Origin: Candidatus Latescibacterota bacterium
GTDB taxonomy: Bacteria; Latescibacterota; UBA2968; GCA-2709665
Direction: 5' to 3'
NCBI GenBank assembly: GCA_965222075.1
Contig: OZ244937.1
Coordinates: 1,536,001-1,600,000 of the forward strand
DNA: 64,000 nucleotides
Shown here: positions 9,805 through 64,000 of the stretch, piece by piece
Numbering within the stretch: position 1 is the first letter of the stretch
How the letters are laid out: every line of letters begins with the position of its first letter
Notes under the pieces: generated by a model
Database searches by the model: none
What the model saw: only the letters and a program-made list of their open reading frames with translations
What the model was told of the DNA's origin: nothing
Program-made: the position numbers and the translations under genes

Positions 9805-9858
9805 CCTGTCTGCCTGCTTGCGCGCTGCGCGCAGGCAAGCGTGCAACGCACAGGCAGG
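9805..9858. repeat. Nested palindromic element (27-bp unit B containing 27-bp unit A), in frame in the transposase remnant
   Basis: cctgtctg[A]cgtgcaacgcacaggcagg = 54 bp, adding ACLCVARLPARSAQAGRQ. Confidence 0.92.
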
Positions 9859-9982
9859 CGTGATCCGACTCATGATAGGACAGATGCACCTTCAACAAGG
9901 ATACCAACGCGTCGATGGTCTTGGCCGGACCCAACTTGGTGACCAGTCGATGCTCCGCCCCCATGCCTCCATAGCTCATCGT

Positions 9983-10027
9983 GCCTGCCGGCAAGGCAGG
10001 GGCAGGACGCAGGCAGGCGCAGGCAGG
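9983..10027. repeat. Degenerate cluster of the same CCTG/CAGG element family
   Basis: cctgccggcaaggcagg ggcaggacgcaggcagg cgcaggcagg: stacked CAGGCAGG ends. Confidence 0.6.
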
Positions 10028-10397
10028 TTGGAGTAGCGAATTCCGTCAGAATCCTGCTATCTCCAACAACGGTAAGCCTTTCCGGTCTTTTAGAACAGAG
10101 AAATCTCATCAATCACGCTTGTTTATGGGCTAGTGCAACTCGGCGAAAATAAACTACCAGTTTGGCCGCAAGTCATTCACCCGGAATTAAGCGATTTCGG
10201 TTCCGGATAACTGATGGGAAACTTCCGCCGAGCACCACTAGTTGATGTCTCCAGCGTTGGTGTGCCGGGTACACCCTCCGCTCCAATCTGATAAAAGGCT
10301 CCTTTATCCGCTTCCTCTTCGGTAGGCCGTTCCCAATAGCCGGCTTGAGATCCGGATAACTGATGGGTTTAAGCATCACATGATGTCAAGCGCTATC

Positions 10398-10413
10398 CCA
10401 ACACGTACAGCTC
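10398..10413 (+). repeat. 16-bp direct repeat, left boundary of the PHP-ATPase islet
   Basis: ccaacacgtacagctc, identical at 13778-13793. Confidence 0.8.
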
Positions 10414-10555
10414 ATACGCGCCCAGCGTGCTGGCCGAAATGGGCCTGTGGAGTTTCGGCCTGCCCTTTGCCGCGGCCCTGCCCGACGGCGACGCTCGAGC
10501 TCCAAGGTCGTTTCCTCACCGAGCCGGATGCGCCGTGCCAACTCATCGTACTCCA

Positions 10556-13282
10556 TCATGGTTCCGATCTCTGCGGGGGCATAATCCGCTGGTAGCGACT
10601 CTCGAATGCCTCACGGCCGCCCTCCATCACGCGACAGATTTCTTCTCGAACCTTCTGTTCCTGAAGGCTGCCCTGACAGGCGATGCGACTTTGGCCCCCG
10701 GCCGACTCAAGCGAGAACACGAGTTCGGCGTCGCCGTGGACGACGATATTGGGATTGTGGGTGACGACGATCACCTGGCGATTGAGCTTCGTTTCCCGCA
10801 GCCGGTGGACCAACAGTTGGTAGATGAGGGTATTGTCCAGATCGTCTTCGGGCTGGTCCAGGATGATCGGCTCGGAACCATAACCCAGAACGAAGGCCAG
10901 GAGCGCGGCGGTTTGCTGCCCCGGCGATCCCTGGGTGAGAGGCCTCCAGTCACTGGCTGAACGCTCTTTGAAACTCACTTCAACATCGTCTTCCGGGAGG
11001 TACAGAGCGAGACGATCGATCCTCTCTGGCGGGACTTTTTTCAGGGCTGTCTCGAAGCGTTGGTCTTTCGTCGGCCAGGAATCCAGCTCTTCCGAAAGAA
11101 GCTGGCGCATCTCTGCAACCACACCATCAAGCTCCTCCCAGCTCCATGACCGATCCTGTTTGGGCTGAATCCTCCGGGCGAGCGCCTGACGGTCGCCTTC
11201 AAAGCGCTCGATGCCGAGAATCCCGATCAAGTCTTTCGCGAGATTCTTGCAGTTCGCGTATTCATCTATTTCAACGCGGATGCTCTCGCCCGATGTCCCC
11301 TTCGAGAAGCTTTTGCGCCTGTCGCTCAGCTCACGGCGTCGCTTGCGGTATTCGGCAAGAATCGCGACGGCCTTGTCCTCCAGTTTCTCCGCTCGCTCTC
11401 TTTCTTTCTCCAGGGCCTCAATTTCTTGCCCGAGCGTGTCCGCCTGTTCCAGCAGATCGCCGTACTCGTTTGGATCGGAAATGCCTTCTTCGGCGAGTTG
11501 GGCGGATGCTTCTTCAAATTCGCGCTTGCTGGCGTCCACTACTGCATGCCATTGGTCGGCATCCGCGCTCGCCTCTATTCCTCCGATATCTCGCCGCGCT
11601 CGCTCGACACTCTCGCGCACGCCTTGCTCAAGGTGTTCCACAGTCAGCCTCAGTGCTTTGTGCGCACGCCTGAGACTCGCCTGGGCCGGATCGTCCTCGA
11701 CCTCAGCCCCGAGGTCGAGATCGGCGACCGAAAGCTTTTCCGCGCTGCGTCCCACCGACTCCACCGCTTGCGACGCCGCCTTTAGAATCGCTCGCCAGGT
11801 ATCGTCCTGCTGACGCCGCTTCCGGTACTTGTTCAGCACCTGCGCTTGTCCGCCTCCTTCGAGAACCTCCAGCTTGCGTCGAACGTCCGCGAGCAACGCT
11901 TTGCGGGCCGGCAACTCGCTTGCCTGAGTAGACGCCGCACGAGACTGGGCGCGCAAAGACAGGTAGCGGTCCCCCATTTGCTCGATAACGCGATTTTGCT
12001 CCGTACCGCGGACAGTTTGGCTATCGTCGATGACGGTGAGCAGAGCGTTCGGATCCTGGGCGAGCGCAAAGAGCTGTTTCTGGCTGTAGATGCGCACCGG
12101 GAAACGCTCGCGGATATTGCCCTCCTGGAGAATCCGTTGCTCTCCATCCAGGCGAGCGATCGGGAGCGCCTCTCCGTCCTGACTCCAGGAGAGAACGAAG
12201 CGCTCGCCGTCCTTGCGGTACACCACTTCGATGCACGTCTCATTCGTCAGCAGTCCTTCCTCCTGGGGCGATGTGGGAACACGCATGCGGCGGTCGAACA
12301 AACTTCGCAACGAGCCTTCTTCGCTGCGGTCGCTGCCGTCGAGTTCCGCTTCCCGGCGGAGCGTCTTACGGCAGAAGTCAATGAGCGTGGATTTGCCGGT
12401 GCCGCGTCCGCCGATGATCGCATTCAGCCACGGGTTGAACGAAACCGTGGTTGGCGACGGCCGACCGATGAATTTGCCCTTGTGAACGGTAATGCTCTCA
12501 ATAGCCAGGGCGGCGTGGGCATTCGGATTGCCTGGCTCTTCCCGGGCAGCCGGCTTGAGGGAAGCCGCGCCATCCAGCAGCGCCAGGCGCAGACCCTCCA
12601 GGTTCGGGCGCGTCATCTTCACCCAGGTGAAGCGCCGGCCCAACTCGTCGGAGTTGTGACCGTCGGAGGCGTGCACCTGCGAGATTCTACGCCTGATCTC
12701 GCCCTTGCTTCCATCAAGCCAGCTTTCGTCGATGCTCCTGTCCGGATCAACCTCGACCGCGGCCAGGTTCCGGTGTCGCAGCACTGCAAGCCGCTGTTGG
12801 CCGCCGTACTGGAGCAGTCCATCGGGTGCGTTGACGTGGGCACCAACGATCAGGGCATTGTCCTCGCACGCGTCTAGAATCTGCTCGATGCCTAACGGGG
12901 AACGAGCAGTCTCGCCACCCCGTTTATCTACGGGAATCTCCACGCTGGAGAGAAGATCGTCGATGTGTTGCTGCGTGCAATCCGGGTCCATCAGCAAGAG
13001 CAGGTGGATGCCGTCACTGGCGGTGATCTCTACCCCGGGGAAGAGACCCGGGGCGTCCTCCACGCCTTTGGCGGCCCGCTGCAGCTCGGAGATGCCCGCG
13101 GCCGTGTTGTGATCGGTGACCGCAGCGGCATTGAGGCCCGCCGTGCGAACCGTCCTCACCCATTGGGTCCAATCGGGGTTCGCCCGATCGTCCTCGGTCC
13201 CAAAATCATGCGACGCCGGGGAATGCGTATGAAGATCAACGCGCCACCAGCGCGCGCCGGGCCAATTCCACGATATGCTCAT
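10556..13282 (-). CDS. PHP phosphoesterase + SMC/ABC-type ATPase fusion (Ppl/TrlF-like), candidate anti-phage protein, about 908 aa
   Basis: DLHTHS, TDHN, GVEI and SDGH PHP motifs; GGRGTGKS Walker A; coiled coil; SPGQ, ILDQPEDDLD, VTHN. ATG at 13282 follows an AGGAGGT RBS. Confidence 0.85.
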   Translation of the reverse strand: MSISWNWPGARWWRVDLHTHSPASHDFGTEDDRANPDWTQWVRTVRTAGLNAAAVTDHNTAAGISELQRAAKGVEDAPGLFPGVEITASDGIHLLLLMDPDCTQQHIDDLLSSVEIPVDKRGGETARSPLGIEQILDACEDNALIVGAHVNAPDGLLQYGGQQRLAVLRHRNLAAVEVDPDRSIDESWLDGSKGEIRRRISQVHASDGHNSDELGRRFTWVKMTRPNLEGLRLALLDGAASLKPAAREEPGNPNAHAALAIESITVHKGKFIGRPSPTTVSFNPWLNAIIGGRGTGKSTLIDFCRKTLRREAELDGSDRSEEGSLRSLFDRRMRVPTSPQEEGLLTNETCIEVVYRKDGERFVLSWSQDGEALPIARLDGEQRILQEGNIRERFPVRIYSQKQLFALAQDPNALLTVIDDSQTVRGTEQNRVIEQMGDRYLSLRAQSRAASTQASELPARKALLADVRRKLEVLEGGGQAQVLNKYRKRRQQDDTWRAILKAASQAVESVGRSAEKLSVADLDLGAEVEDDPAQASLRRAHKALRLTVEHLEQGVRESVERARRDIGGIEASADADQWHAVVDASKREFEEASAQLAEEGISDPNEYGDLLEQADTLGQEIEALEKERERAEKLEDKAVAILAEYRKRRRELSDRRKSFSKGTSGESIRVEIDEYANCKNLAKDLIGILGIERFEGDRQALARRIQPKQDRSWSWEELDGVVAEMRQLLSEELDSWPTKDQRFETALKKVPPERIDRLALYLPEDDVEVSFKERSASDWRPLTQGSPGQQTAALLAFVLGYGSEPIILDQPEDDLDNTLIYQLLVHRLRETKLNRQVIVVTHNPNIVVHGDAELVFSLESAGGQSRIACQGSLQEQKVREEICRVMEGGREAFESRYQRIMPPQRSEP

Positions 13283-13531
13283 GTTGTACCTCCTATATCT
13301 CCATCGCCGAACAGCCCACCATTCGTCAGCCACCCGGGCAAGAATCACCCCCAAGGGTGCATCCAGGTGGACAGCGCTTGCCTCAATCCTGTTGTGTCGC
13401 TCGCGTCCAACAAACTTATACAGCGTTTGTACGCCGCTCAAACTCGGCCGCTACCGAGTTGTAAACCCCTCGTGCCTGCGACACCGCCCGTTCGGCGTCG
13501 GCCGCTGTGGAACCACATTGGCAATCTTGGG

Positions 13532-13760
13532 CTAACTACCAAACAGTTTTTGACGAACTTCATCTTGAGGCAGTCCAAAATGTTCAGCGACATCGGACAC
13601 TATCGAACTTAGTGTGCCTACATTTACTTGACGATGACACGGGATAGTCACGTTATGCTTCGTCCCTTGAATGGCGGTGGTTAGCGTCATGGTGACTGCC
13701 ACGCTGCCGAATGAGCTGGTTCCGGGACAGTCTCATACCGCGATCACCTCATCCTTTTCG
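13532..13760 (-). pseudogene. Decayed HicA-like toxin with the last codons of its upstream antitoxin
   Basis: MRLSRNQLIRQRGSH/(frameshift)MTLTTAIQGTKHNVTIPCHRQVNVGTLSSIVSDVAEHFGLPQDEVRQKLFGS*; preceded by KDEVIAV* with an ATGA overlap. Confidence 0.7.
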
Positions 13761-13777
13761 TTGGGGTGTCGTGGATT

Positions 13778-13793
13778 CCAACACGTACAGCTC
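13778..13793 (+). repeat. 16-bp direct repeat, right boundary of the PHP-ATPase islet
   Basis: Identical to 10398-10413. Confidence 0.8.
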
Positions 13794-13795
13794 CG

Positions 13796-14578
13796 CTACG
13801 TCCAGGCCTCGCACCCGTCAAAGGGCATGTGCTCACCTTCCACATATCGCGGCCGGGGCACGTACCTGTTCCCCAATTCGGGCACCACTTCGCCCCGGCA
13901 CATGATGCAAGGGCTGCGATCGACCGTAACCCTGGTGCTGGTTGGAATATAGCGCAGGGTGAGCCCCACCCGCCACTGGTTCGACGTATTGGTGTTGGAG
14001 CCGTGGACGATATTGGGGTGATGGATGGAAATATCCCCTGCCCTGAGTTCCACGTCCACGGCGTCGGCCTCGTCGATTTGATCGGGACGCATCCCCACGC
14101 CGAGCACGTACCTGTCGGGATCCAGATCCACCATCTCCGAGCGCTTCAACAGTCGCCGGGTATGCGTCCCCGGCAAGACGCGCATGCAACCGTTCTCCAC
14201 GGTGGAGTCCGTGCCCGCGACCCACAACGTCGTGACCTCCATAGGCTCCAGGGGCCAGTACGAGCCATCCTGATGCCACTGCACGGCCTGCCCGGTGCCG
14301 GGTTTTTTTGCGATATAATGCGCCGCGAACATGGCCACGTTGGGCCCGATGAACTGCGCCGCGATATCAACCAGCCGGTCGTCACAGACCAGGCGGTGCA
14401 TAAACGGATCGTCCACAAGAAGCCCGTGGTGCAATCGCTCGGGCCGTGTTCCCGGATGCTTTTTGACCAGCCAGTGTACGTGCTCGACCGTTTCGGCCGC
14501 CAGCCCCGCGTCAATGGCCCTGCGGGCAATGCAAATGCCTTTCTTGTCGTATTCCTGCCGCAGTAGTGTCGTTTCCAT
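13796..14578 (-). CDS. Phytanoyl-CoA dioxygenase (PhyH) family 2OG-Fe(II) oxygenase
   Basis: WHQD, ENGCMRVLPGTH, HGS and R motifs. Confidence 0.9.
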   Translation of the reverse strand: METTLLRQEYDKKGICIARRAIDAGLAAETVEHVHWLVKKHPGTRPERLHHGLLVDDPFMHRLVCDDRLVDIAAQFIGPNVAMFAAHYIAKKPGTGQAVQWHQDGSYWPLEPMEVTTLWVAGTDSTVENGCMRVLPGTHTRRLLKRSEMVDLDPDRYVLGVGMRPDQIDEADAVDVELRAGDISIHHPNIVHGSNTNTSNQWRVGLTLRYIPTSTRVTVDRSPCIMCRGEVVPELGNRYVPRPRYVEGEHMPFDGCEAWT

Positions 14579-14657
14579 CCGCTCTCTCCAGCTGCGATTT
14601 CATCTTCCCGAAATTTGGGACGCGCAAGAGCGTTCAGGCGCCCTGGTCTGCGTTTCG

Positions 14658-14733
14658 CCTGCCTGTGCCGCTTGCCTGCGCGCAGCGCGCAAGCAGGCAG
14701 ACAGGCAAGCAGGTGCCCGTCACGGCAGACAGG
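14658..14733. repeat. Intergenic, multiply nested palindromic element (76 bp, not a multiple of 3)
   Basis: cctgcctgtgccg[unit A rc, 14671-14697]cagacaggcaagcagg tgcccgtcacggcagacagg. Confidence 0.88.
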
Positions 14734-14736
14734 CCT

Positions 14737-14781
14737 CCCCCGCCTTCGGGGCGGGGCGGGCGAGACGCCCGCGCTCCCAGG
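14737..14781. repeat. GC-rich hairpins, REP-like
   Basis: ccccgcc-ttcgg-ggcgggg and gcgggcg-aga-cgcccgc-gctcccagg. Confidence 0.5.
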
Positions 14782-14884
14782 GGGGGTCAAGGTCGCTACG
14801 CAGACGATTTTCCTTGACTTTTAACCTGGTAGAAAGATATTATGGTGCAATTTTGAGCAACAGGGACCTTTTTTTCAAGAAAGG

Positions 14885-15706
14885 TTGAAACCTGTGTCTT
14901 ACCAACAGCTGATAGCCGAATTAAACGCGCTCGTCCACAATTTAACCCAGCATCTGATAGCGGTCGCGCCCCGGCTGGCGGGCGCTGTGGCCCTGGTGGT
15001 GCTGGGCCTGGTGCTGGCCTATTTGGTCCGTGCTCTGAACCGCCGGCTGATCGCCGGACTGGGCCGCCTCATCCCCAGCCTGCGGCTGCACCGCGGGCGC
15101 TGGGCGGACTTTCAGCACACGGCCGGCCGGGCCGTCGGCCGCGTGCTCTTCTGGATGGTTCTGCTCTTTTTTCTCGCTGCGGCCATCGAAACCCTGGGCA
15201 TGCCCGTGGTCTCGGTGTGGCTCAACGGCATCGTCCTCTACTTGCCCCGACTCCTCGCAGCTGTCCTGATCCTGTTCGCCGGCCTGTTGGGCGCCCATTT
15301 TCTCAAGGACCTTATCGCCTCGACGGGGATCACTTACGCGGCCGCCCTGGGACGTTTGGGGCAGATGGCAGTCCTGATAGTGACCGCTCTCATCGCCGTG
15401 GACCAGGCGGGGTTGAGCGTCGACATTCTGACCAGTGTGCTCCTCCTCTTCCTCGGCAGCTGCCTGCTGGGCAGCGCCCTGACCTTTGCCCTCGGCGCCC
15501 GGACGACCGTGTCCAATATCCTGGCCTCCTACTACCTGCAGAAGACCTACAGAGTAGGCCACCGGGTTCGCGTCGGGGATTTCCGGGGCGAGATCGTCCA
15601 GATAACCGCCACCGCGGTGGTACTGGAGGCCGAGGAGGGTCGGGTCTTGGTGCCGGCGTCGGTCTTTGGCGAACAGACGTCGATTCTGCTGGTAGAGAGG
15701 AAGTGA
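14885..15706 (+). CDS. Small-conductance mechanosensitive channel (MscS-like)
   Basis: Multiple TM helices followed by YRVGHRVRVGDFRGEIVQI. Confidence 0.85.
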   Translation: MKPVSYQQLIAELNALVHNLTQHLIAVAPRLAGAVALVVLGLVLAYLVRALNRRLIAGLGRLIPSLRLHRGRWADFQHTAGRAVGRVLFWMVLLFFLAAAIETLGMPVVSVWLNGIVLYLPRLLAAVLILFAGLLGAHFLKDLIASTGITYAAALGRLGQMAVLIVTALIAVDQAGLSVDILTSVLLLFLGSCLLGSALTFALGARTTVSNILASYYLQKTYRVGHRVRVGDFRGEIVQITATAVVLEAEEGRVLVPASVFGEQTSILLVERK

Positions 15707-15710
15707 ACCG

Positions 15711-16553
15711 ATGGACAATGCCTCGAACCTGATCCAGTGCTTCATCCGCAGCCACGCCTCCGAGGCAGCCCGCGTACTGGAAAACTGTTCAACAGACGAA
15801 CTGGTCCCCTTCTTCGCCCGCACCCCGCCCGAGCTGGCTGCCGCCCTTTTCAACACGATGGAGACGAGTACCTCGGTGGCCTGCCTGGAGCGCATGGCGG
15901 CAGCCCAGGCCGCCGCGGCCCTGGCCCAGGTGCCGTTGGAGCGGGCCGCCATGCTCGTGCGCCGTCTGCAGCCGGAGGCACGGGAGGCCGTCCTGCCCCT
16001 GTTGCCGCCCGACTTCAACAAGCATCTCGAACTCCTGCTGCGCTACCCAGAGGAAACCGCCGGGGCGTTGATGGAGCCCCGGGTCTTCACACTCCCGCCC
16101 GAAATATCGGTCAAAGAGGCGCTCGCCCGTGTGCAGGCCAATCCGGACTACGCTTTGTACTACCTGTATGTGGTGGAGCGGGACCAGACCCTGGCCGGCG
16201 TCCTCAACCTGCGGGAGTTGCTGGCCGGGGGGGAAGGGGCCTCTGTGGCCGCGCTCATGCACCGGGACGTGGTGTGCCTGCGGATGGGCGATTCGCTGGC
16301 TTCGGTGCTGGCCCATCCCGCCTGGCTGGAATTCCATACGCTGCCCGTGCTCGACGAACAGGCTCTGTTTGCCGGGGCTTTGCGCCACAGAACCCTGCGT
16401 CAACTGGCCAGCCGAGCGGACCTCATGGCCCATCCCGGCCAGGCCGGGACGGCCCTGGGAGAACTCTATCGCATTGGCCTGTCGGCGCTGGTCAAAAGCA
16501 CCCTTGGGGTGGACCGCCTCCCATCGCCGATTGCCGATCATGCTGATCAATAG
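15711..16553 (+). CDS. MgtE intracellular/CBS-domain protein without a membrane domain
   Basis: LRYPEETAGALM and CBS pair. Confidence 0.8.
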   Translation: MDNASNLIQCFIRSHASEAARVLENCSTDELVPFFARTPPELAAALFNTMETSTSVACLERMAAAQAAAALAQVPLERAAMLVRRLQPEAREAVLPLLPPDFNKHLELLLRYPEETAGALMEPRVFTLPPEISVKEALARVQANPDYALYYLYVVERDQTLAGVLNLRELLAGGEGASVAALMHRDVVCLRMGDSLASVLAHPAWLEFHTLPVLDEQALFAGALRHRTLRQLASRADLMAHPGQAGTALGELYRIGLSALVKSTLGVDRLPSPIADHADQ

Positions 16554-16594
16554 GCCACCCCCCGGAGCGCATCCAAAAGAATAAGGAGTGAGGA

Positions 16595-17911: not shown

Positions 17912-18530
17912 CCTCGTAGAGCACAACAATCAGACGCCCGGGACCGTGCACGCCAAGCGTCAACGTAAATTCAATATCGGCTGTTTTGCTCGGACCGCTG
18001 ATAAGGACCACATTGGCGGGCATGTCGCCGGCACGCCCGGACACCCAGGTAAAAAGATCCGGCGTGAGACACGAAACGGCAACCATCGCCACATGCACCG
18101 GCGGCAGCAGCGTCGCCAGACGGGACTTTTCAGAACCACTGTGGACGATAATACTGCCCGTCTCCGCCAGCCCCGCCTCAGCTCCGCTCAACCCCACATC
18201 CGCCCGCGCACAAAACTCACGTAAATCTCCCGCCGTCTGCCCCACCACATGCCATTCGCAGTCCGGCCACCGCTGTTTCAAATCCACCAGCGGAGGTTCA
18301 TTATTGGCCACCACTGCCTGCGCCCCCACTTCACGCAATATCCCATCTACCTCTCTCCATGCCAACTCCAAACTCGATGTCCGGCGCACCTCTCCCTTAG
18401 CCGCCCGCAACGACGCCGTAAAACGAGCCGCCAGGTCCGAAAACTTCCGCTCTGACCGCCACGCAGGAGGCGGATTCTCCTCACGCGCTTTGGAACGCAG
18501 GCGATTCAGGATCTCCTCACGCGCGCTCAT
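17856..18530 (-). CDS. lutC: Lactate utilization protein C (LUD domain)
   Basis: AETGS, LLPPVHVA, ISGPSKTADIE, GVHGP; the C-terminal tail overlaps mgtE. Confidence 0.88.
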   Translation of the reverse strand: MSAREEILNRLRSKAREENPPPAWRSERKFSDLAARFTASLRAAKGEVRRTSSLELAWREVDGILREVGAQAVVANNEPPLVDLKQRWPDCEWHVVGQTAGDLREFCARADVGLSGAEAGLAETGSIIVHSGSEKSRLATLLPPVHVAMVAVSCLTPDLFTWVSGRAGDMPANVVLISGPSKTADIEFTLTLGVHGPGRLIVVLYEVKEPDRKRRPSGWPAPEN

Positions 18531-31409: not shown

Positions 31410-34400
31410 TTACCACACCGGCCGGAACGCCGTCACCGTCCCCGCCGACGTGGCGCATACCACTCGATCTCCCTCCCCCCCCTCCACCGCCCGAAGGTGT
31501 GTCACCTCTCCCTCGACCTGACACCCCGCGACAAGCTCCCCTTCTCCGTTGTAGACCCGGATCTCTCCCGTATCAAACCCCACCACAACCTTCGGCTTCC
31601 CATCCCCGTCTACCGTCGTCAGCCACGTGATCTTGTCCCCCAGGTCCCGCCGCCAGATCACCGCGCCGTCCCCACCGATGCAGGCGAGCTGCCCCACGTC
31701 GCTACCCACGATCACCTCCGGCCTTCCGTCACCGTTCACGTCCGCAACCGCGATATCTTCCACCTCACCCCCCATATTCACCCGCCAGATCATCCCGCCT
31801 CCCCTGTCCGGCCGGCCGCTGTAAGTGCCCGGCCCGCTGAACAGCTCTCCGCTCCGAACGGCGTTCACCGCCCGCCAGTCGCCATAGATCACCTCCAGCG
31901 CCCCATCGCCGTTCAAATCGGCCGACAGAATCGTCGGCGATACGCAGCCGGTGCTCCGCCGCCAGCGCGCGGTCCCGTCCGGATTCAAACAATTGATCGT
32001 ATAGTATTCGGTACCCACCAGCACCTCATCCTTTCCGTCTCCATCCAGGTCCACGGCCAGACACCCTGTAATACAGTGGTAGTGGGTCTCCGTCTGCCAC
32101 TTCAGCGTCCCGTCCGCCTCGAACACGTGGAACAGCCACCCCTCGGCCCCGGCCAGCACCTGCACCTTTCCGTCCCCATCCAGATCGGCCGACGACACCG
32201 TCATCAGCCGCTGCGGGCGCATGCCGCTTCCCGGCGGAAACGCGTGCTCCCAGCGCGTCTCGCCCCCGGCATCCAGCACGTGCAGCCAGCAATCCCCGGT
32301 GCCAACAATCGCCTCAGAAGCATCGTCTCCATCGATATCCGCCAGGTGTACGGCGCGGACTTCACCCTTTGCCCTGAAAGACCACACCTCACGCCCGTCC
32401 GGCCCGAGCAGGTGCACACCCCCCTCTGACGTGCCCACGAGCGTCCGCCCCGCCCCATCCGATGCCACCGCCGTCACACCTGCCTGCGCAGCGTCCTGCT
32501 CTGCCTGCCCGCGCGCAGCGCGCAGGCGGGCAGGCAGGCCCGCCCCGGCGTCGAACGTCCATTCCGGCTCCAGCCCCTCTCCGGGCGTCGGTTCCTGATC
32601 TTTGGACACACGACCTTCACCGTACGGAGACGTCTTCTCCAATACCCGGTCAAAGACCCCTTCGGCCCCGGGTGAGACCTCCAGACCGTGCCGGCCGGCC
32701 GGAAGCGTGAACCACAGCAGCTTTCCCTCGCCGCCACCTGAAATCCGTTCCCCGTTCAGACTGACCACCTCCGCACGGATGCCCACGCGGGTCTCGCTTC
32801 GCGCCTCGATAACGCCCTCTCCCTTCGCCAGATCCATCTCGACCGAGACCGGCGCCCAGCTCCGGAACAGCGGCCCCTCCCACGACAGCACGGTGCCTTC
32901 CACCAGGGCAAACCCGTTCCTGTCGATCCGGAACAGCTTCCCCTCCACCTCCAGCGCTCCCGACCTGAACGGCCCGACCCCGGCCATCACCCCCTGATCG
33001 GTCTGTTGATCTGCCTGTGCGTGTGAAACGCAGGCTTGCCTGCGCGCAGCGCGCAAGCAGGCAGACAGGTCCCGGACCAGCACCACAGACGGCCCGACCC
33101 GCTCCAGGGCAAAGGCCTGATCCATCCCCGCATTGGACGGGTACAGCAGGTTCACGTACGCCGTCCGATCACCGGCATCCAGCGCAACCCGCTTCTTCTG
33201 GTGCCACATTCGCACCACCCCGTCCGCATGCTCGTAATTCTCCCAATTGGACTTCCAGTCCGGCGCAAAATCCGCCTCCCGATCCGTCAACGTCTTCTCG
33301 GAGCCGTCCGCATTCACAATGTGGAACCGCTCCCCGTCCTGCTCAAGGTGCAGTTCATTCCCGTCCACCTCCACCTGTCCCAGCACCCGCCAGATGCAAT
33401 CCAGCAGGAAATCTCCTTTCTCCCGTCCTTCCACCGTATCAACCACCAGAAAATACCGCCCCTTGCGCCAGAAGATGCTTCGCGCCCAGTCCGTCCCGTT
33501 ATCCCCCGGCGACACCGTCTGGCTGTACCCCCACCCCTCGAAATCCGCGATCGCCCTCAGCGCCACCTGTGTCGGCTTGGTATAACACGTCCCGTCCTTC
33601 ACAATCACCACCGAATTGTGATACCTCGCCAGGCGGCGGATATAATCCAGGTCCGCCAACCAGATCCGGTCGTTCCAGCAGAGGCGGATCACCGAATTGC
33701 CGTCCTCCTGGGAATGCGAAAAACCGGTCGGCCCATCAATCAGCAAATATTCGCTGCCCCTATCGAAGCTACGCCGGAACGCCAGCTTGTCGAACGCCTC
33801 CGACAGCGGCACCTCCGCCTCCAGCACCGGGTCCCCGTGATACTGTTCCGTATTCCGTGCCCGTTCCCTGACCAGCTCGTATGCCGCCCGGTCCAGCATC
33901 GACGCCCGCACACCCAGCAGCTCCGTCGGCTCTACCGGCGCCACATCCTTAAAGAAAAACCCGTCATAGACCTCCCACCCTCCAATCCCCCAGTTCGTCG
34001 CCCGCTGGAACGAGTCCTTCCACTCCCCCCCCTTCTCCATCCACTCATAAAGCCACCGATAGCGCCCGTCGTTGTAGAACCACGCCCCGATGGCGGCTGA
34101 CTGCAACCCACTCGGACGGCTCGACCGGGATGCTCGATAGGCCCCCACGTCGCCGTATGAACAGTCGTCCCCCCGGCTATCGATCGTCAACACCGCACTG
34201 TCCAGCAGGCGCGCCAGATGACCGTTCTCCAAGTAAGAAAGATCTCCGGTCATCATCCCGTACTTGATCAGGTGCCCCGGCGTAATCCAGACGTATCCCG
34301 TACCCGCATTGTCATTCGGCTTGTAGGATCGGGCATGCAGTTCCAGCGTCCGGTGCGCTAACGGCAGCTTCTCGTCAAAATCCGTCAACCCGTAATACTT

Positions 34401-35375
34401 TTTGAAATACCTCGCCCCCGTGAACAGGCTCAACGCCGCAAAGCTCTGGTGGTTCTGGTTCTGCACCACGTCGTCCACGGTTTTGTACCGGAAATGGGGC
34501 AACTCCGACGTCCACCGGATAATATTGTAAATCGCGTTCGTCATCTTCAGCCGGTCCGCATCGCTCAGCACCTCCCCCTCCTCCATCACATCCCACGCCG
34601 TCAGCATCCGGTAAATCCAAAAATAGAGATGCGTTCCCTGAGACAGGCACCAGTCTCCCACCTCGTGCGCCAGGTCAATAAAAAACAGAAACTCCTCCCG
34701 CAACATCCACCCCCACACCTCCTGACCCGACAGATAGTAGAGCATCGCGTGGTCCACCATCCGCCGAAGCGGCCCCTGGCTCCCCGAAAGCGCCACCTGC
34801 TCGTTGACCGTATCGATGGTCTCCCGGGCCTCCGCCTCCGTGGGCGGCGACTCCGGGTTATGACGGGACACCGACCGGTTGATCCGGCCGATGCGCGTCC
34901 CCTCGGCCTCCAGAATCCCCAGGAAACCATCCACCGCCCGGTCTACACCCTCCGGTGTGCTCCCTCCCAGAAGGACCACGTTCCGCCCCTTCCCGAAGGG
35001 ATTGTGAACCGTGCGCACCTCATATCCCTCCCCCCCGGGATAATACTCGTCCGTCCACGCGTAAAAATTCATCCCCAGGTGCCGGACCACTGCGTTGTTG
35101 AACACATTCCCCGCCGCCACAATGTGCGCAGCCTCCCAATCGCTCTCGCCGATCTCCGATGCAGGGCGCACCTCTGCTCCACTGCCCAGAGCCTGTGCAA
35201 TCCCCTGGCCGATTTTCTCTCCGGCCTCACCCTCCGGCGGCACGATCAGCACCTCTTTCGACAGATCCGTCTCCAGGCAGAGATCCTTCAGCTTCGGAAT
35301 CTCCTTATTCCGGATCTCAATATCGTACGACTCCTGCCGCCGTCTCCGGGCGCTGCGGCCTTCTGCTCCAGCCAT
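31410..35375 (-). CDS. Heparinase II/III-like + FG-GAP/PQQ propeller protein (1321 aa) with two 60-bp in-frame insertions
   Basis: NQNHQ, FDKLAFR, SHSQEDGNS motifs and DLDGDG repeats. Confidence 0.78.
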   Translation of the reverse strand: MAGAEGRSARRRRQESYDIEIRNKEIPKLKDLCLETDLSKEVLIVPPEGEAGEKIGQGIAQALGSGAEVRPASEIGESDWEAAHIVAAGNVFNNAVVRHLGMNFYAWTDEYYPGGEGYEVRTVHNPFGKGRNVVLLGGSTPEGVDRAVDGFLGILEAEGTRIGRINRSVSRHNPESPPTEAEARETIDTVNEQVALSGSQGPLRRMVDHAMLYYLSGQEVWGWMLREEFLFFIDLAHEVGDWCLSQGTHLYFWIYRMLTAWDVMEEGEVLSDADRLKMTNAIYNIIRWTSELPHFRYKTVDDVVQNQNHQSFAALSLFTGARYFKKYYGLTDFDEKLPLAHRTLELHARSYKPNDNAGTGYVWITPGHLIKYGMMTGDLSYLENGHLARLLDSAVLTIDSRGDDCSYGDVGAYRASRSSRPSGLQSAAIGAWFYNDGRYRWLYEWMEKGGEWKDSFQRATNWGIGGWEVYDGFFFKDVAPVEPTELLGVRASMLDRAAYELVRERARNTEQYHGDPVLEAEVPLSEAFDKLAFRRSFDRGSEYLLIDGPTGFSHSQEDGNSVIRLCWNDRIWLADLDYIRRLARYHNSVVIVKDGTCYTKPTQVALRAIADFEGWGYSQTVSPGDNGTDWARSIFWRKGRYFLVVDTVEGREKGDFLLDCIWRVLGQVEVDGNELHLEQDGERFHIVNADGSEKTLTDREADFAPDWKSNWENYEHADGVVRMWHQKKRVALDAGDRTAYVNLLYPSNAGMDQAFALERVGPSVVLVRDLSACLRAARRQACVSHAQADQQTDQGVMAGVGPFRSGALEVEGKLFRIDRNGFALVEGTVLSWEGPLFRSWAPVSVEMDLAKGEGVIEARSETRVGIRAEVVSLNGERISGGGEGKLLWFTLPAGRHGLEVSPGAEGVFDRVLEKTSPYGEGRVSKDQEPTPGEGLEPEWTFDAGAGLPARLRAARGQAEQDAAQAGVTAVASDGAGRTLVGTSEGGVHLLGPDGREVWSFRAKGEVRAVHLADIDGDDASEAIVGTGDCWLHVLDAGGETRWEHAFPPGSGMRPQRLMTVSSADLDGDGKVQVLAGAEGWLFHVFEADGTLKWQTETHYHCITGCLAVDLDGDGKDEVLVGTEYYTINCLNPDGTARWRRSTGCVSPTILSADLNGDGALEVIYGDWRAVNAVRSGELFSGPGTYSGRPDRGGGMIWRVNMGGEVEDIAVADVNGDGRPEVIVGSDVGQLACIGGDGAVIWRRDLGDKITWLTTVDGDGKPKVVVGFDTGEIRVYNGEGELVAGCQVEGEVTHLRAVEGGEGDRVVCATSAGTVTAFRPVW
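32479..32538. repeat. Nested palindromic element (33-bp outer + 27-bp A variant at 32504-32530), in frame
   Basis: Adds LPARLRAARGQAEQDAAQAG between FDAGAG and VTAV; the outer unit differs at 2 positions from 63708-63740. Confidence 0.9.
33010..33069. repeat. Nested palindromic element (33-bp outer + unit A at 33035-33061), in frame
   Basis: Adds LSACLRAARRQACVSHAQAD. Confidence 0.9.
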
Positions 35376-54944: not shown

Positions 54945-55020
54945 ATGAAAAATTGCAAATCGAAAAGCCCTTCGGTAAACCCGATGCCCCAATTTGCAAT
55001 GTGCAACGTGCAATGTGCAA
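54945..55020. repeat. Heptamer tandem/inverted repeats
   Basis: atgaaaa attgcaa atcgaaa ... atttgca atgtgca acgtgca atgtgca. Confidence 0.55.
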
Positions 55021-55027
55021 CAGCTTC

Positions 55028-59731: not shown

Positions 59732-59747
59732 CGTTCACCCTCACACC

Positions 59748-61712
59748 CTATTCAATCCACGGATGGATGCTGTGTCCGGCTCCCGGGAACAGGAACATAT
59801 CCACCAGGAACGCCCCGGTAATGCCCAGCACATGCCCAACCAGCAGCCCCAGGAAAAACGGCTGTGCCTTTCGGAACAGCGTAATGCCGCCCACCCGCAG
59901 GATGAGCGACTTGCACGACCAGGCCAAAAATAACGTCAGCGCGAAATTCCGCACCAGGTCCGTCCCCATAATCGTGAATCCCACAGGATGGATGGGCCAC
60001 CACGGGAACCGGTAGCGCAGAAACGTCAGAACCCCCATCACCCCAACCCCGATCCAGAAAAACATGATCCGGTTCCAGTCAACCTCAAACGGCTCCTTGA
60101 TCTTGCTCACCGTATCCGGAAAATTGTGCACGCCCCCGCAGATAAATCCGTGTCCAAAATTTTCGGCCCCCCGGGTGTAGCCCAGGTAGAGCGTCCCCAG
60201 CATCACCACAAACGTCGTCACCAGGAACGACAACCCCACCGCCCAGAACAGACGCCTGCCCCTGTCTCCGATCGGCTCCGACACCTTGGCTACATGCGCC
60301 ATCTGCGACGTCGAACTCGAGTGGATCGGATAGGAAAACAGAAGCGTGGTCAGACTTGAAGGCGACACCTCTTTGGCGCCCAGGAGGTACACCGAAAAAC
60401 TCTGTGCCGTCATCGGACCCTGCACATACAGCAGACCCGACTCCGCAATGATCCGGGCCACACCGATATACAATACAAACAGCATCCCCACCAGCGGAAC
60501 CGCCATCTTCAAATCCATCCCCGCTCGATTCAGCCACACAACCGCAAACACCACGCCCAGCACAATCCCCACAACCGCCGTCCGATACGACAGCATCTCG
60601 TGTGAATCGTCCACCGGATGCTCCGACCGCCACGCCTTCATCACCACATCTTTCAGGTGCCGCCTGGCCATCCACAGCCCGAAAAGCACGAACACGCAGA
60701 ACGCCCCCAACCCCTGCCAGCTCGACGCCGCATCGTAGGACCCGTACCGGTCGCCTCTGCCGCCGATGCTGTAGCCCAGCCGGTTGAAAACCCCGAACTC
60801 CAGCACGAATACCGCGAAGAAGAACCAGACGCTGAACAGCACGTCCAGGTTGGCGAAATAGGAAAACGCAAACGTAAACGGATCGATATAGCTGAACATC
60901 GGCGGCATATCCCGCCCGAAAAACGCGTAGACCCGTCCCCGAACCGGCATCTCGGGAAACGCGGGAGAAATCCAGGGCAGCGCATTCCAGAAAATAAACA
61001 CAAACCCGATGCAGGCCCCAATCCAGAACAGCTTTCCCCGTACGAACTGAGGCCACCATTTGCTCGAATCCGACCCCCTGGCCATCTCCACGATAGGCTC
61101 TATCACAGGATACCGCAGCCGCTCGTGCTCCACCCACTGCTTCCGCAGCACCACCGAAAGCGAAGCCGCTGCAAAAGCCAGCACACAGAACAGCAGCACC
61201 CACCAGAACATCGGCACCACCCACGCTCCCCATGGAATCTCTCCCTGCCCCCCGGCCAGCCCGTTGAACAGCAGCGTCACCGCGCCGTCCACGTCCAGCG
61301 GCGCAATCCAGGAGGGCAGGGAGGGGTGCAGCAACGTGCCCCACTGGTTCTCCGGCGTGGCCAAATAGTAAGGAATGGTAATAAAGGCGAACACATGGGC
61401 GATCGGCGCGCCCCCCACCAGCCCCATCGCAAAAATCGTCAGCATCTCCCGGAGGCTCAACCCGCCCGGGCGTCCGACCCGCTTGAGCACCGGATTCAGC
61501 AGGAACAGGATGATCAGCATTGCCACGAACAGCGCCGGCGAAAGAAAGCCGGCCGTCATCCCGGACGACCGGATCAACCGGCGCGAATAGATCCCCCAGC
61601 CCTGAATGAACAGGGCCACGGCAAGCCCGATGGCGATCGACCGCCCTGTCACCCCCCGTCTCTCCACGCCCACCGCCTCCTCCGGGAGTGAAACCTTCTG
61701 AGGGTGCTGCAT
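59748..61712 (-). CDS. DUF6785/DUF6784-like polytopic membrane protein (putative transporter)
   Basis: Many TM helices; LRKQWVEHERLRYP, WWPIHPVGF, PFFLGL. Confidence 0.75.
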   Translation of the reverse strand: MQHPQKVSLPEEAVGVERRGVTGRSIAIGLAVALFIQGWGIYSRRLIRSSGMTAGFLSPALFVAMLIILFLLNPVLKRVGRPGGLSLREMLTIFAMGLVGGAPIAHVFAFITIPYYLATPENQWGTLLHPSLPSWIAPLDVDGAVTLLFNGLAGGQGEIPWGAWVVPMFWWVLLFCVLAFAAASLSVVLRKQWVEHERLRYPVIEPIVEMARGSDSSKWWPQFVRGKLFWIGACIGFVFIFWNALPWISPAFPEMPVRGRVYAFFGRDMPPMFSYIDPFTFAFSYFANLDVLFSVWFFFAVFVLEFGVFNRLGYSIGGRGDRYGSYDAASSWQGLGAFCVFVLFGLWMARRHLKDVVMKAWRSEHPVDDSHEMLSYRTAVVGIVLGVVFAVVWLNRAGMDLKMAVPLVGMLFVLYIGVARIIAESGLLYVQGPMTAQSFSVYLLGAKEVSPSSLTTLLFSYPIHSSSTSQMAHVAKVSEPIGDRGRRLFWAVGLSFLVTTFVVMLGTLYLGYTRGAENFGHGFICGGVHNFPDTVSKIKEPFEVDWNRIMFFWIGVGVMGVLTFLRYRFPWWPIHPVGFTIMGTDLVRNFALTLFLAWSCKSLILRVGGITLFRKAQPFFLGLLVGHVLGITGAFLVDMFLFPGAGHSIHPWIE

Positions 61713-61738
61713 CTTGCGTTCTCCTTTGCGTTCGTAAC

Positions 61739-61765
61739 CACGAAAGAACACGAAAGAACACGAAA
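61739..61765 (+). repeat. Short tandem repeat (cacgaaagaa)x2.7
   Basis: cacgaaagaa cacgaaagaa cacgaaa, intergenic. Confidence 0.6.
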
Positions 61766-61766
61766 C

Positions 61767-61885
61767 TCACGCTTTCAACGCCTGTGCCTCTCCCGTGCGG
61801 ACCGACTCAAACGCCTTCAGAATAATAATCGTCGCCCGCGTCCCATCCTCTGCCGGGGACGGGGACGGCTTTCCCTCCAGCAAAC
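61767..61885 (-). pseudogene. C-terminal remnant of a Gfo/Idh/MocA oxidoreductase
   Basis: CLLEGKPSPSPAEDGTRATIIILKAFESVRTGEAQ resembles the termini of 38091-39182 and 40190-41194. Confidence 0.5.
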
Positions 61886-61903
61886 AGCGGTCGGAGGATC
61901 TCC

Positions 61904-64000
61904 TCACAGCTTCAACGCTTTGGTTTCGCTTCCGGAGTTGGGAATCGAAATCCGGTCGCCCGGTTTGAAATCCAGAATCTCGAACCGCCTGCCTGCCTGC
62001 TTGCGCCTGTCTGCGTGCGACGCACAGGCAGGCGCTGCGCGCAGGCAAGCCTGCAGCCCCTCCACCGATTCCAGCCGGATCTTCTTAAACGCCAGCAAAT
62101 CGACGATGCGGGACTGAAACGACCCGTCCTCCGTGCGCAGCACCTTCCCCTGGTATTCGCCCTTGTCTCCGCTGTTGTTGAAGCCCCATGCAAACGCAAG
62201 CGGCACGTCGCAGACCAGGACATCCGGGGCCTCAACCGCTTTGACCGTCCCCCTCACCAGCCGGGGATCGCCGTGCTGCAGGACGAGCCGGGCGTTCTGC
62301 CCACCCACGGCGGAGACAACCCGGTAGCCCGAACCGTGAGAATAGGGCGCGTCCGCTTCGGCCGCGTCCACCCGGCACAGCCGCCCGTCCAGGCGCATCC
62401 CGTCGGGCAGATCCCGGTCAATCGCCACGGATTCCGCATCGGCATCCACACCCGCGATCCGGGCCTCAAAACGCGCCTCCGGGAGCGTCGTTTCCGCATC
62501 GCCAAACCGCAAGCGCGTCCCTTCTACCAGGCACAGCTCCACCCGGCCGTTCGCCTCCCGAACGACCCCGAACCGCCCCTCAAGCGCAATCGGAACGCCC
62601 GCTTCGTCCCGGACCTGGACCGATCCGTCACGCGAGAAAAGGACCGTATCGCGTCGGCCGTCGGCCAGGTGTACCCGCACGGCCACGCTCCCGCTGTCCA
62701 CGTCGCGCGCAAGCACGCTTGCCCCCACCACGTTGCGCGCGCCGGAAAACGCCTCCAGCACGCTAACGAACAGGCTCTTCAGATCCTCCCCCTCCCGGCG
62801 GAGTATCACGCGATGAATCTGCTGCGCGCCTCTCAGGTCGGGTCCTTTTGCCGCGATCAGGGTCGCCGCCGGGTCGGCCGGAAACCACACGCCGAAACGG
62901 GTATCCCGCGCATCCCCAAACGTCCAGAGCGCGTATGCGTCCCGATCCAGGCAGGCGGTTTTCACATCGTGGATAAACGCGTACCCGTTCCCGGGCGGTG
63001 AGAGCCATCCGTAGGGCAGCGGACTTCCATCCGGCGCGGCCACGCCCTGGATGCGATCGTTCGGACCGATCCGTTCCCCCCAACTCTTCCCGGGCGCATT
63101 CGCCTCTTCCGAGCCGTCCACCGTCCCCAGCGCAGCCAGCGTCCACACCCCGGGACGGGCGGCAGGAGACACGCCCTCCAGGGAAAACGCCCCCGAATCC
63201 CCCTCCACGAATTTGGGTCCGTTCATCGCATAGTCGTGCATACGCCCGCCGGCCACCGGGAAAATATCCACCGTATAGGACGTCTCCTCGTCCACATCGC
63301 AAAAAATCAGCGCCCGGCGGTACTCGGTCGCCCCCTGGTGGCTCCTGGACAGCGGCGCGGAATACTCCGCGATCTTCACACCCCCCAGATCCTCGAAAGC
63401 AACCAGGTTCGCGCTGGGCACGAACTCGTAGCCCTGAGACGTCGGGATATCCTCGTTTACCGTCACCATCGCGTGGGAGATCGCCCGCATGCCCCACCCC
63501 CGATGCACGTGCGAACCGGCCAGCGCGTAGCCCACGTCTTCGATCACGGTCCGGCCCTTATCGTAGAGAAACAGCGCCAGCTGATCGTCCTGTGCCAGCA
63601 GGTTCGCGCCCCCCCGCACAATCAACGCCCGCGCCCGGTCTCCCGTCCCGCTTCGTAGCACCACCACCCCCTTGTGCCCGGCGAACGAAGAAGTGGATGG
63701 AAACCCGCCTGCCTGCGCAGCGTACTGCGCTGCAGGCAGGCCCCCGGCTTCCCCGGTCGGCCCCGGAACGGTATTGAACAGCGCCCAGGTGCCACGCCGG
63801 ACGTTCTCCGCCTTGCCATCCGACAGATCCAGCATCAGCTGCTCCGCCCGCTGCCGGGTCTTTGCGTCCCCACTTCGGAAATAGAGCCGTTCCAACAGAG
63901 ACCAGTGGCTGGACATCACCTCCCGTTCGGACGGCGGCCAGTAGCCCGGCCGCGCGTTCGTATTTCCGTAAGACGGAATGCGCCCGCACGCCCGGATCAA
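61904..64000 (-). CDS. Heparinase II/III family protein (5' end outside the window) with two in-frame palindromic insertions
   Basis: GVVVLRSG, DQLALFLY, DVGY, SHAMVTVN, YRRAL, HDY motifs. Confidence 0.75.
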   Translation of the reverse strand: MIRACGRIPSYGNTNARPGYWPPSEREVMSSHWSLLERLYFRSGDAKTRQRAEQLMLDLSDGKAENVRRGTWALFNTVPGPTGEAGGLPAAQYAAQAGGFPSTSSFAGHKGVVVLRSGTGDRARALIVRGGANLLAQDDQLALFLYDKGRTVIEDVGYALAGSHVHRGWGMRAISHAMVTVNEDIPTSQGYEFVPSANLVAFEDLGGVKIAEYSAPLSRSHQGATEYRRALIFCDVDEETSYTVDIFPVAGGRMHDYAMNGPKFVEGDSGAFSLEGVSPAARPGVWTLAALGTVDGSEEANAPGKSWGERIGPNDRIQGVAAPDGSPLPYGWLSPPGNGYAFIHDVKTACLDRDAYALWTFGDARDTRFGVWFPADPAATLIAAKGPDLRGAQQIHRVILRREGEDLKSLFVSVLEAFSGARNVVGASVLARDVDSGSVAVRVHLADGRRDTVLFSRDGSVQVRDEAGVPIALEGRFGVVREANGRVELCLVEGTRLRFGDAETTLPEARFEARIAGVDADAESVAIDRDLPDGMRLDGRLCRVDAAEADAPYSHGSGYRVVSAVGGQNARLVLQHGDPRLVRGTVKAVEAPDVLVCDVPLAFAWGFNNSGDKGEYQGKVLRTEDGSFQSRIVDLLAFKKIRLESVEGLQACLRAAPACASHADRRKQAGRRFEILDFKPGDRISIPNSGSETKALKL
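61996..62049. repeat. Reverse-nested element: unit B (62006-62032) inside unit A, 54 bp, in frame
   Basis: cctgcttgcg[cctgtctgcgtgcgacgcacaggcagg]cgctgcgcgcaggcaag; removal leaves EGLQAGRRFEILD. Confidence 0.92.
63708..63740. repeat. Solo 33-bp palindromic element, in frame
   Basis: cctgcctgcgcagcgtactgcgctgcaggcagg encodes LPAAQYAAQAG. Confidence 0.85.

Follow-up and report, generated by a model that had tools for sequence, protein, structure and literature searches.

Nested miniature hairpins in a Candidatus Latescibacterota genome: target preference, distribution and probable mobility

The elements described here are DNA hairpins of 25–36 nucleotides (nt) that lie inside one another in a genome of Candidatus Latescibacterota, and their closest described counterparts are the repetitive extragenic palindromic sequences (REPs). 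REPs are described as species-specific (PMC6006769), and their inheritance is expected to be mostly vertical; some of them are found inside open reading frames (ORFs), some families lie within small palindromes, and a genome may hold several families (PMC3733652). Class 3 TnpA-Y1 genes, described from Planctomycetes, Acidobacteria and Proteobacteria, have beside them hairpins whose foot carries CnGA on its 5' side; Solibacter usitatus has about 600 copies of such hairpins (PMC6006769). Rickettsia palindromic elements (RPEs) are mentioned among in-frame palindromic elements (PMC3733652). The stretch considered here, hereafter the window, is a 64-kb piece (positions 1536001–1600000) of one 5.36-Mb contig (OZ244937.1) with a G+C content of 59%; its positions are numbered from its first letter, and the genome to which it belongs is referred to as G000. 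The window contains several copies of two hairpin units of 27 nt each, unit A (CCTGCTTGCGCGCTGCGCGCAGGCAAG) and unit B (CCTGTCTGCGTGCGACGCACAGGCAGG). Both units belong to a hairpin superfamily with roughly 300 members in G000, and they are very probably mobile REP-like hairpin elements that follow the target rule described below.

Hairpin units as precise insertions

Unit A is present six times in the window, each time directly 3' of an octamer CCTGYCTG, as the first-pass annotation of this DNA had noted, and every coordinate and structure named in that annotation is present in the sequence. The octamer is CCTGTCTG for the copies at 5010–5036 and 9813–9839 on the forward strand and for those at 14671–14697 and 33035–33061 on the reverse strand. 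It is CCTGCCTG for a variant of A (CCCGCCTGCGCGCTGCGCGCGGGCAGG, of the form CCCGCCTG...CGGGCAGG) at 32504–32530 on the reverse strand, and for a forward-strand copy at 61996–62049 that is split after base 10 by unit B (62006–62032). The copy at 5010–5036 sits after base 8 of a 36-nt T-type host (5002–5009 plus 5037–5064; T-type units begin with CCTGT), and the resulting 63-nt forward-strand composite (5002–5064) lies inside a gene for a protein of 1124 amino acids (aa) on the reverse strand (3884–7258). A 54-nt forward-strand composite at 9805–9858, located outside predicted genes, consists of A (9813–9839) after base 8 of a 27-nt host B with the loop AA. As single-stranded DNA (ssDNA), this composite is predicted to fold into a forked double hairpin (-18.4 kcal/mol), the fork being formed by the host foot, the guest hairpin and the inner hairpin of the host. 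The 76-nt composite at 14658–14733 on the reverse strand contains A (14671–14697) in a host of the 33-nt type; the tandem octamers cctgcttg and cctgtctg precede A, and two layers have no right halves, from which we infer a nest followed by deletion between direct repeats.

Two composites of 60 nt, both on the reverse strand, are in frame within a gene for a 1321-aa protein (31410–35375, reverse strand). In the one at 32479–32538 the variant of A follows base 8 of a 33-nt C-type host (C-type units have a symmetric foot), and in the one at 33010–33069 A follows base 8 of a degenerate T-type host, the final base of which is A and not G. The reversed order is confirmed for the 54-nt forward-strand composite at 61996–62049, in which A is the host and B (62006–62032, loop GA) the guest; the octamer CCTGCCTG directly 5' of this A (61988–61995, forward strand) is made up of native codons and contains no part of an element. 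The same gene (61904–64000+, reverse strand) carries in frame both this composite and, on the forward strand, a solo 33-nt C-type hairpin at 63708–63740 (-14.4 kcal/mol, z = -3.2). The solo hairpin is an un-nested relative of the shell at 32479–32538 and, as previously reported, differs from the reassembled shell at two of 33 positions (17 and 22).

Empty sites are available for five of the window inserts (63, 60, 60, 54 and 33 nt), and none of the five is accompanied by a target duplication. The tandem paralog at 471–3761 is without exactly the 21 aa at which the composite 5002–5064 sits, and the sequence at its empty site, cgg|tggg, shows no duplication. The composites at 32479–32538 and 33010–33069 are missing from nine orthologs of the sister genus and from a genome of the same genus (G001; local DNA identity 85–94%), the empty sites of which read gcggg|tgtg or tcggg|tgtg-like for the first and ggga|ccgg for the second, again with no duplication. 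The inserts at 61996–62049 (exactly 54 nt) and 63708–63740 (33 nt) are also missing from nine orthologs. The insertion point at 61996 is ambiguous by 4 nt, because CAGG flanks both sides of one junction. Without the 54 nt, the G000 gene reads L-Q-A-G-R-R-F, where the orthologs have L-R-(P/A/E)-G-(S/L)-R-F, one of them starting with L-L-P. Nine orthologs have plain codons at the position of the octamer 61988–61995, which bears out its description as ordinary coding sequence, and the octamer differs from the gctgcccg-like sequence of the orthologs at two of eight bases. These five inserts are, thus, precise in-frame insertions without target duplication.

The paralogs at 471–3761 and 3884–7258 (reverse strand; 1096 and 1124 aa) are 70% identical and encode a beta-propeller/FG-GAP protein, and several further beta-propeller/FG-GAP genes are present in the window. 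In four public sequencing runs, summed contig depth was 1804–8175 at 14675–15341 and 196–688 at 9339–10005, as opposed to about 10–150 elsewhere, and these two bins therefore contain sequence of high repeat number in the samples concerned; the repeat gggcgagacgcccgcgctcccagg falls in the bin 14675–15341. A contig from run X7 that joins 9804 to 9859, skipping the 54-nt composite, was not counted as an empty allele, because its shorter side has 29 letters and the flank is multi-copy in those runs. A self-BLAST of the flanks of 9805–9858 found no second flank copy with an empty site.

The superfamily was delimited by repeated removal of the innermost hairpin from 286 candidate regions of G000. 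This yielded 300 units (40 regions without a unit, 204 with one and 42 with two to five) with 151 distinct sequences, corresponding to 0.17% of the genome; most regions holding at least one unit hold a single one (204/246), and the multiples are mostly nests. The units are 33 nt (103), 27 nt (87), 30 nt (23), 25 nt (19) or 36 nt (16) long in most cases, and 239 of the 300 have a length divisible by three. They start with CCTG (or the variants CCCG and CTTG) and end with CAGG or CAAG. Inward of a common 8-bp foot (CCTGYYTG at the 5' side, CAGGCARG at the 3' side) lie a bulge of 2 nt, either CG on one side or CA on the other, and then an inner stem-loop. For 44 distinct 33-mers, 577 of 616 pair cells fit a foot of 8, a bulge of 2, a stem of 6 and a loop of 3, and sliding the 3' partner by one or two columns gives a fit of only 26–41%. 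The foot is invariant in these 33-mers and the inner stem has compensatory pairs (CG 30, AT 8 and GC 2 at pair 12–24, for example). In unit B the stems are kept and two loop bases vary, with 11 loop variants among 123 copies from other genomes.

Predicted genes contain 99 of 260 top-level inserts, which are, therefore, depleted from coding sequence yet far from excluded from it. Lengths that are multiples of three account for 84 of the 99 genic inserts and for 116 of the 161 outside genes, so an in-frame length is a property of the family and does not reflect a filter only. Of the 17 inserts of the 25-nt class, 16 are intergenic. No stop triplet is found on either strand in 122 of the 151 distinct units, as against 55% of controls with shuffled interiors. 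The genic inserts in the window (four in two genes plus one in the paralog pair) are all multiples of three. The densest carriers in the genome are transposase-like genes and the linker of an outer-membrane protein; of three transposase-like carrier ORFs, the first gave a match to DDE_Tnp_1, the second a match to DDE_Tnp_1_3 that stays under the Pfam cut-off, and the third none to any Pfam family. The dense carrier genes are read as tolerant, neutral sinks, in keeping with the membership of the hot-spot genes in different families or in none. Hot spots with 6–11 units per 5 kb lie at 318–320 kb, 496–499 kb, 3039–3043 kb and 4022–4024 kb of the contig (G000:C1; L011–L014), for the most part in transposase-like genes, and the products of these genes carry hairpin-encoded strings such as LPARSAQAG and LPVRCTQTG.

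Target preference and nesting

The target of the superfamily can be described from 223 de-duplicated, oriented, top-level sites of G000. On the left side, position -1 is a purine in 188 sites and position -2 is A in only seven; on the right side, +1 is a pyrimidine in 200, +2 is a base other than T in 216, +3 is G or T in 167 and +4 is G in 155. Of these 223 sites, 80 carry the complete motif, (not A)R|YSKG, as opposed to 1.9% of genome positions, and the motif represents a preference rather than a fixed word. There is a tendency towards complementarity between positions -1 and +1 (A..T at 62 sites, G..C at 63). The words found 3' of T-type units, such as TCGG (22/110), TCTG (12) and TGGG (8), resemble the first four bases of the element itself, CCTG. 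The preference at -2, -1 and +1 recurs in the copies of B from other phyla (117 after de-duplication), which have a base other than A at -2 in 112 cases, a purine at -1 in 100 and C at +1 in 95.

Forty of the 300 units are nested, although the superfamily occupies only 0.17% of the genome, and one region (319697–319807) holds four layers. The guest lies after base 8 of the host, at the junction of foot and bulge, in 17 of the 40 nests and after base 10 in three, the remainder lying in or beside the inner hairpin; by a row count, CG follows immediately 3' of the site, in the orientation of the host, in 33 of the 40. Guests at base 8 are found in B with the loops AA, TC and GA, in hosts of 30, 33, 36 and 42 nt, in another 27-mer and, for T-type guests, in A; since at least eight different host sequences are involved, several independent events must have occurred. 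The nest orders are A-type in T-type (14), C in C (8), T in A (6), C in T (4), T in C (4), T in T (3) and A in C (1), and the guest has the same orientation as its host in 29 of the 40 nests. Both orders of A and T-type units are thus represented, and all parts are also found as solo units, in agreement with the earlier proposal of sequential insertion of separate units. The CTG|CGTG junction of B fits the general motif perfectly. A second perfect match in B, after base 4 (CCTG|TCTG), is used in none of the 40 nests, and the position in the fold must therefore count besides the sequence. In other phyla, B lies in the loop of an unrelated hairpin of at least 5 bp in 22 of 116 cases, as against 4.7% of control sites at the same loci.

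The first-pass annotation had held that A always lands 3' of CCTGYCTG and that the target is chosen by homology to the element's own end. A genome-wide comparison of the flanks of A showed them to be non-random, with no single octamer rule. Among the 19 canonical copies of A in G000, 11 follow the octamer, four lie in the inner hairpin of a 33-nt host, after its base 20 (gggca|A|cggcac), one is in another 33-mer and three are at sites unrelated to the octamer, one of them after cagtctg. Among 55 exact copies of A with flanks in metagenome contigs, eight follow the octamer, 11 are in a recurring context (ggagccga|A|agg) and many lie elsewhere in reverse-oriented hosts. The octamers CCTGTCTG and CCTGCCTG have 1267 occurrences on both strands of the 5.36-Mb genome, so chance adjacency would be expected in about 0.002 of 19 A copies. 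A often follows CCTGYCTG because the foot/bulge junction of the sister element (CTG|CG) fits the target site, and the junction with the octamer is more plausibly the most favourable site that a hairpin offers, a motif match at the junction of foot and bulge. The octamer is, thus, a hot spot within a broader target preference and not a fixed target.

A strict fixed target, with A picking CCTGYCTG by homology or guide pairing with its own terminal arm, is unlikely, even though the octamer precedes all six copies in the window and a native foot-like octamer was used at 61988–61995. Left flanks that are foot-like (at least six of eight matches) are enriched about five-fold (16/223 vs 1.35% of control sites), but 207 of the 223 top-level sites of the superfamily have no such flank, eight of the 19 genome copies and 47 of the 55 metagenome copies of A lie elsewhere, and the information in the flanks is mainly on the 3' side (Y-S-K-G) and not on the left. 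Target choice is non-random, as proposed, and homology to the element's own end is not supported as its rule; the unused match after base 4 of B also indicates that sequence alone does not set the site. Another possibility is that A was inserted into B once or a few times and that the 54-nt composite was then copied, the junction reflecting copying and not target choice. Identical composites of A in B (loop AA) are found in three unrelated contexts, seven of eight metagenome copies of A in a host share a host with the loop AC and similar outer flanks, and the outer ends are intact in the composite. This scenario nevertheless seems doubtful, given that the many different base-8 hosts would need many independent events, and that the variant of A is found at the same place in C-type hosts.

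Candidate movers and rival mechanisms

The best overall explanation is that A and B are non-autonomous REP-like miniature mobile elements, most likely moved by an HUH-type enzyme; taken as a whole, this explanation is given slightly better than even credence. A trans-acting, structure-reading enzyme of the HUH/Y1 kind would excise the folded single strand and paste it elsewhere, recognizing the foot and cutting beside a tetranucleotide that resembles the element's own end. The whole hairpin of 25–36 nt is inserted precisely and without duplication at (not A)R|YSKG, with other hairpins as preferred landing sites, and a composite, keeping its intact outer ends, is presumably mobile again as one unit. 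Genic copies survive as 9–21 extra residues, because most length classes are divisible by three and stop triplets are absent from the majority of units. The ssDNA/HUH mechanism suggested in the first-pass annotation is still the most plausible one, although no cognate enzyme was found. It is favoured because of the absence of duplication, the structure-conserved hairpin, the end-like flanking tetranucleotide and the insertion into hairpins, judged by the rules given in PMC6006769. A moving enzyme of the HUH type is, on this basis, a serious possibility that falls somewhat short of being probable.

Several observations weigh against this explanation. No cognate enzyme or transposase was found in G000. 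The sole intact IS200-type tnpA gene (2071940–2072314) is flanked by other hairpins, with no CCTG-foot hairpin in its locus, and two more Y1 genes are remnants, one of them invaded by nested hairpins. A gene resembling those of REP-associated tyrosine transposases (RAYTs), at 3242104–3242871, has no CCTG hairpin in its 3.2-kb locus, and the nearest parsed units are more than 25 kb away. In six hairpin-rich relatives, the RAYT genes that exceed the curated cut-off have another hairpin, GCGAGGGCATCCCTGCCCTCGC, on their flanks; flanks of this type were seen when the RAYT loci of five hairpin-rich relatives were scanned for inverted repeats, and a CCTG unit was found in one of 12 RAYT loci above the cut-off. 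Replication-strand bias appears to be weak, with the CCTGT strand on the leading strand in 78 of 129 T-type units (p = 0.02, uncorrected). IS608-type elements, by comparison, have a strong replication-strand bias. The top-level sites in G000 are only slightly enriched in hairpin loops (16/243 vs 4.2%), and several nested guests lie within stems and not in loops, such as A after base 20 of a 33-nt host. Finally, the parser overlooks variants, including the variant of A with CGGGCAGG, so the counts are minimum values, C-type units were oriented by convention, and the gene calls (3608 genes, 84% of the genome) come from a crude, self-trained ORF scorer.

Genes of the RAYT family, of two subtypes, are present in ten listed hairpin-rich genomes of the family to which G000 belongs and in none with nine copies or fewer; the subtypes were judged from matched model positions alone, and the relatives are not independent. 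A RAYT enzyme as mover remains a lead only, given that two genomes with 26–28 copies lack RAYT and that both subtypes adjoin other hairpins. The RAYT loci of five relatives (L252–L256 in G032, G002, G009, G018 and G033) are flanked by the hairpin GCGAGGGCATCC(C)TGCCCTCGC, of which the strict pattern has two copies in G000, and CCTG-foot hairpins often lie in the loop of similar repeats (gagggcgaga|...|cgccctcg). The RAYT-like gene of G000 (C1:3242104–3242871; L045, 1294–2061) encodes 255 aa with an HVH motif and an extra internal segment; a small repeat (GACAGNTTGTRCTAC...), which includes the perfect hairpin CACAAACTGACAGTTTGTG, has three copies in or just after this gene and six in the genome. 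A RAYT-like (Y1) domain is also found in frame in open frames of 1203–1441 aa, at L036 (G002:C2:168550–171780) and in G033, G032 and G003. The N-terminus of L036 resembles, from the look of the sequence alone, a DUF1156-type DNA methyltransferase, and two or three such Y1 domains lie within about 16 kb, some 20–30 kb from the ortholog of the window gene 31410–35375. An IS200-type tnpA remnant (...WECKYH / VVWIPKCRR...) at G000:C1:611297–611461 (L274, ~1447–1611) is interrupted by a nest of 58 nt that consists of a 33-mer within a 25-mer.

Other mechanisms would account for part of these data. The hairpins could be minimal miniature inverted-repeat transposable elements (MITEs), back-to-back terminal inverted repeats that depend for their movement on the DDE transposase of a parent insertion sequence (IS): in formal terms the foot is a terminal inverted repeat of 8 bp, and DDE transposase genes are the densest hairpin carriers. 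This is very unlikely, since no target duplication is present at the five verified sites, the covariation of the inner stem points to a folded strand, and the hot-spot genes, which include that of an outer-membrane protein, belong to different families or to none, as fits neutral sinks. A search for a parent element bounded by half hairpins 200–5000 nt apart gave six orphan pairs per strand, all with different spacings, and no recurrent long element. It also seems quite improbable that the mover is a recombinase reading folded strands or short crossovers, such as an integron-integrase-like tyrosine or an IS607-like serine enzyme. The attC sites of integrons have extrahelical bases and the core boxes RYYYAAC and GTTRRRY. 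The bulged hairpin recalls these extrahelical bases, there is no duplication, and the complementary bases at -1 and +1 would fit a dinucleotide shared with a CAGG|CCTG circle junction; nevertheless, A..C (24) and G..T (20 of 223 sites) would be mismatched crossover sites, and the foot, when read directly, contains neither core box. No integron integrase above the cut-off was found in G000, the best TIGR02249 match reaching 93 bits as opposed to the required 265. Least probable of all is a route by way of an RNA copy and reverse transcription, or through host replication or repair. No DNA transposase is linked to the hairpins, RNA-mediated spread has been proposed for the GC42 clusters of yeast mitochondria (PMC4478555), and a widely shared host activity would agree with the very wide host range. 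However, there is no Rfam match, and G.T and A.C mismatches are about equally frequent in a tally of oriented 33-mers, so neither strand is favoured as RNA would require. Frames of 148–155 aa with 70–93 bits to parts of the integron-integrase model are present at G000:C1:697214–697438, 416087–416323 and 5301112–5301384, and may be remnants of tyrosine recombinase genes.

Distribution and comparison with known systems

The spread of the superfamily within the order is burst-like and patchy. Among 53 genomes of the order, matches of the foot pattern number from 0 (17 genomes) to 333, a reversed-pattern control gave no match in any of the 53, and the dominant master copies differ between genomes. 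Exact copies of B are present in 10 of 30 relatives (1–4 copies each) and in at least 118 stretches of a species-representative genome collection, in which about 0.001 matches would be expected by chance for 25 fixed bases. At least 17 bacterial phylum-level names, plus one Methanosarcinales bin, are represented among the 80 matches listed; bins may be contaminated, and single odd hosts carry little weight. The stretches with exact B have G+C contents of 31–72% and unrelated flanks. Clustering of ORFs revealed no common neighbour gene of B, the largest ORF family spanning six of 118 loci at a median distance of 3.4 kb. B is also found in 17 stretches of viral contigs in IMG/VR, which contain no copy of A. 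The 54-nt composite had no match in annotated plasmid and phage collections, in a search with a short query and the low-complexity filter on. No Rfam family reached the gathering score in the window, and none was found at an E value of up to 1 in a 6-kb hairpin-rich locus. A search of open-access full text with 12–13-letter pieces of B returned apparent chance matches only (such as primers, as judged by title), and thus no text in which the hairpin is printed.

A more far-reaching interpretation, which we regard as tentative and on balance doubtful, is that the 27-nt hairpin, identical in many bacterial phyla, at least one archaeal bin and viral contigs and with no transposase gene linked to it, ranks among the smallest mobile elements known and is moved by an undescribed, widespread hairpin-moving activity. 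This activity might be an unrecognized enzyme family or a common replication or repair route; its targets would be junctions in other hairpins that are unpaired and adjoin a CCTG-like word, and passengers in insertion sequences and phages might carry the elements between hosts. If this is true, such hairpins would stand at the lower size limit of mobile DNA, with an unusually wide host range. They would provide a natural data set, with hundreds of dated insertions and empty sites in relatives, for the study of target choice by a structure-reading enzyme, of the tolerance of proteins to random inserts of 9–21 residues, and of mobile elements that serve each other as landing pads. In practical terms, the hairpins cause breaks in assemblies and inflated values of repeat depth, and annotated proteins of uncultured bacteria acquire spurious-looking peptides from them.

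Among systems other than REPs, the elements of the IS200/IS605 group (IS608-type) share with the hairpins the absence of duplication, the recognition of a hairpin and insertion beside an end-like word, which is here a preference (PMC6006769); they differ in having two subterminal hairpins and not one, and the elements described here have no transposase gene inside, a length of 25–36 nt and an apparently weak strand bias. The GC42 clusters of yeast mitochondria are likewise small GC-rich hairpins that change mainly in their loops and merge and shuffle as units, but they are organellar, have a putative AG target duplication and differ in sequence (PMC4478555). Integron attC sites differ from the hairpins, the foot of which has no R''/R' core boxes in a genome without an integron integrase above the cut-off, and MITEs differ in that neither a target duplication nor a parent IS with the same termini was found here. 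The RPEs are similar in being palindromic repeats that are in frame in protein-coding genes and are translated. They are several times longer than these hairpins and are not known outside Rickettsia, and neither nesting nor cross-phylum identity is known for RPEs.

The hairpins associated with class 3 Y1 genes (PMC6006769) offer a further comparison. The T-type units, read on the other strand, are preceded by CCGA in 22 and CAGA in 12 of 110 cases, that is, by CnGA words at the foot, and titles from Planctomycetes, Acidobacteria and Proteobacteria are also present among the B matches. The tetranucleotide of the elements described here is, in contrast, a pre-existing target, present at empty sites. 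No class 3-like gene was recognized in G000; class 3 Y1 genes nonetheless constitute a lead as candidate movers.

The likeness to REPs and to the REPIN-RAYT system lies in the hairpin of 20–40 nt with a basal stem, a bulge of 1–3 nt and a second stem (PMC3733652, PMC6006769), and in the high copy number of elements that are mostly located between genes, with some in ORFs. There are differences, however. The foot here is CCTG, neither the GTAG/GTGG nor the CGTC tetranucleotide, and neither CCTG nor CAGG occurs as a string in the available text of PMC3733652. No RAYT gene is flanked by CCTG hairpins, the units are mostly single and do not form the inverted doublets of REPINs, and their length classes are multiples of three. 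Published REPs are described as species-specific (PMC6006769) and as partners of a single-copy transposase, whereas B is identical in many phyla and has no adjoining partner gene. What is new is the CCTG foot, the in-frame length classes, the systematic self-nesting at one junction, the absence of a flanking RAYT gene and, above all, the letter-for-letter identity across phyla.

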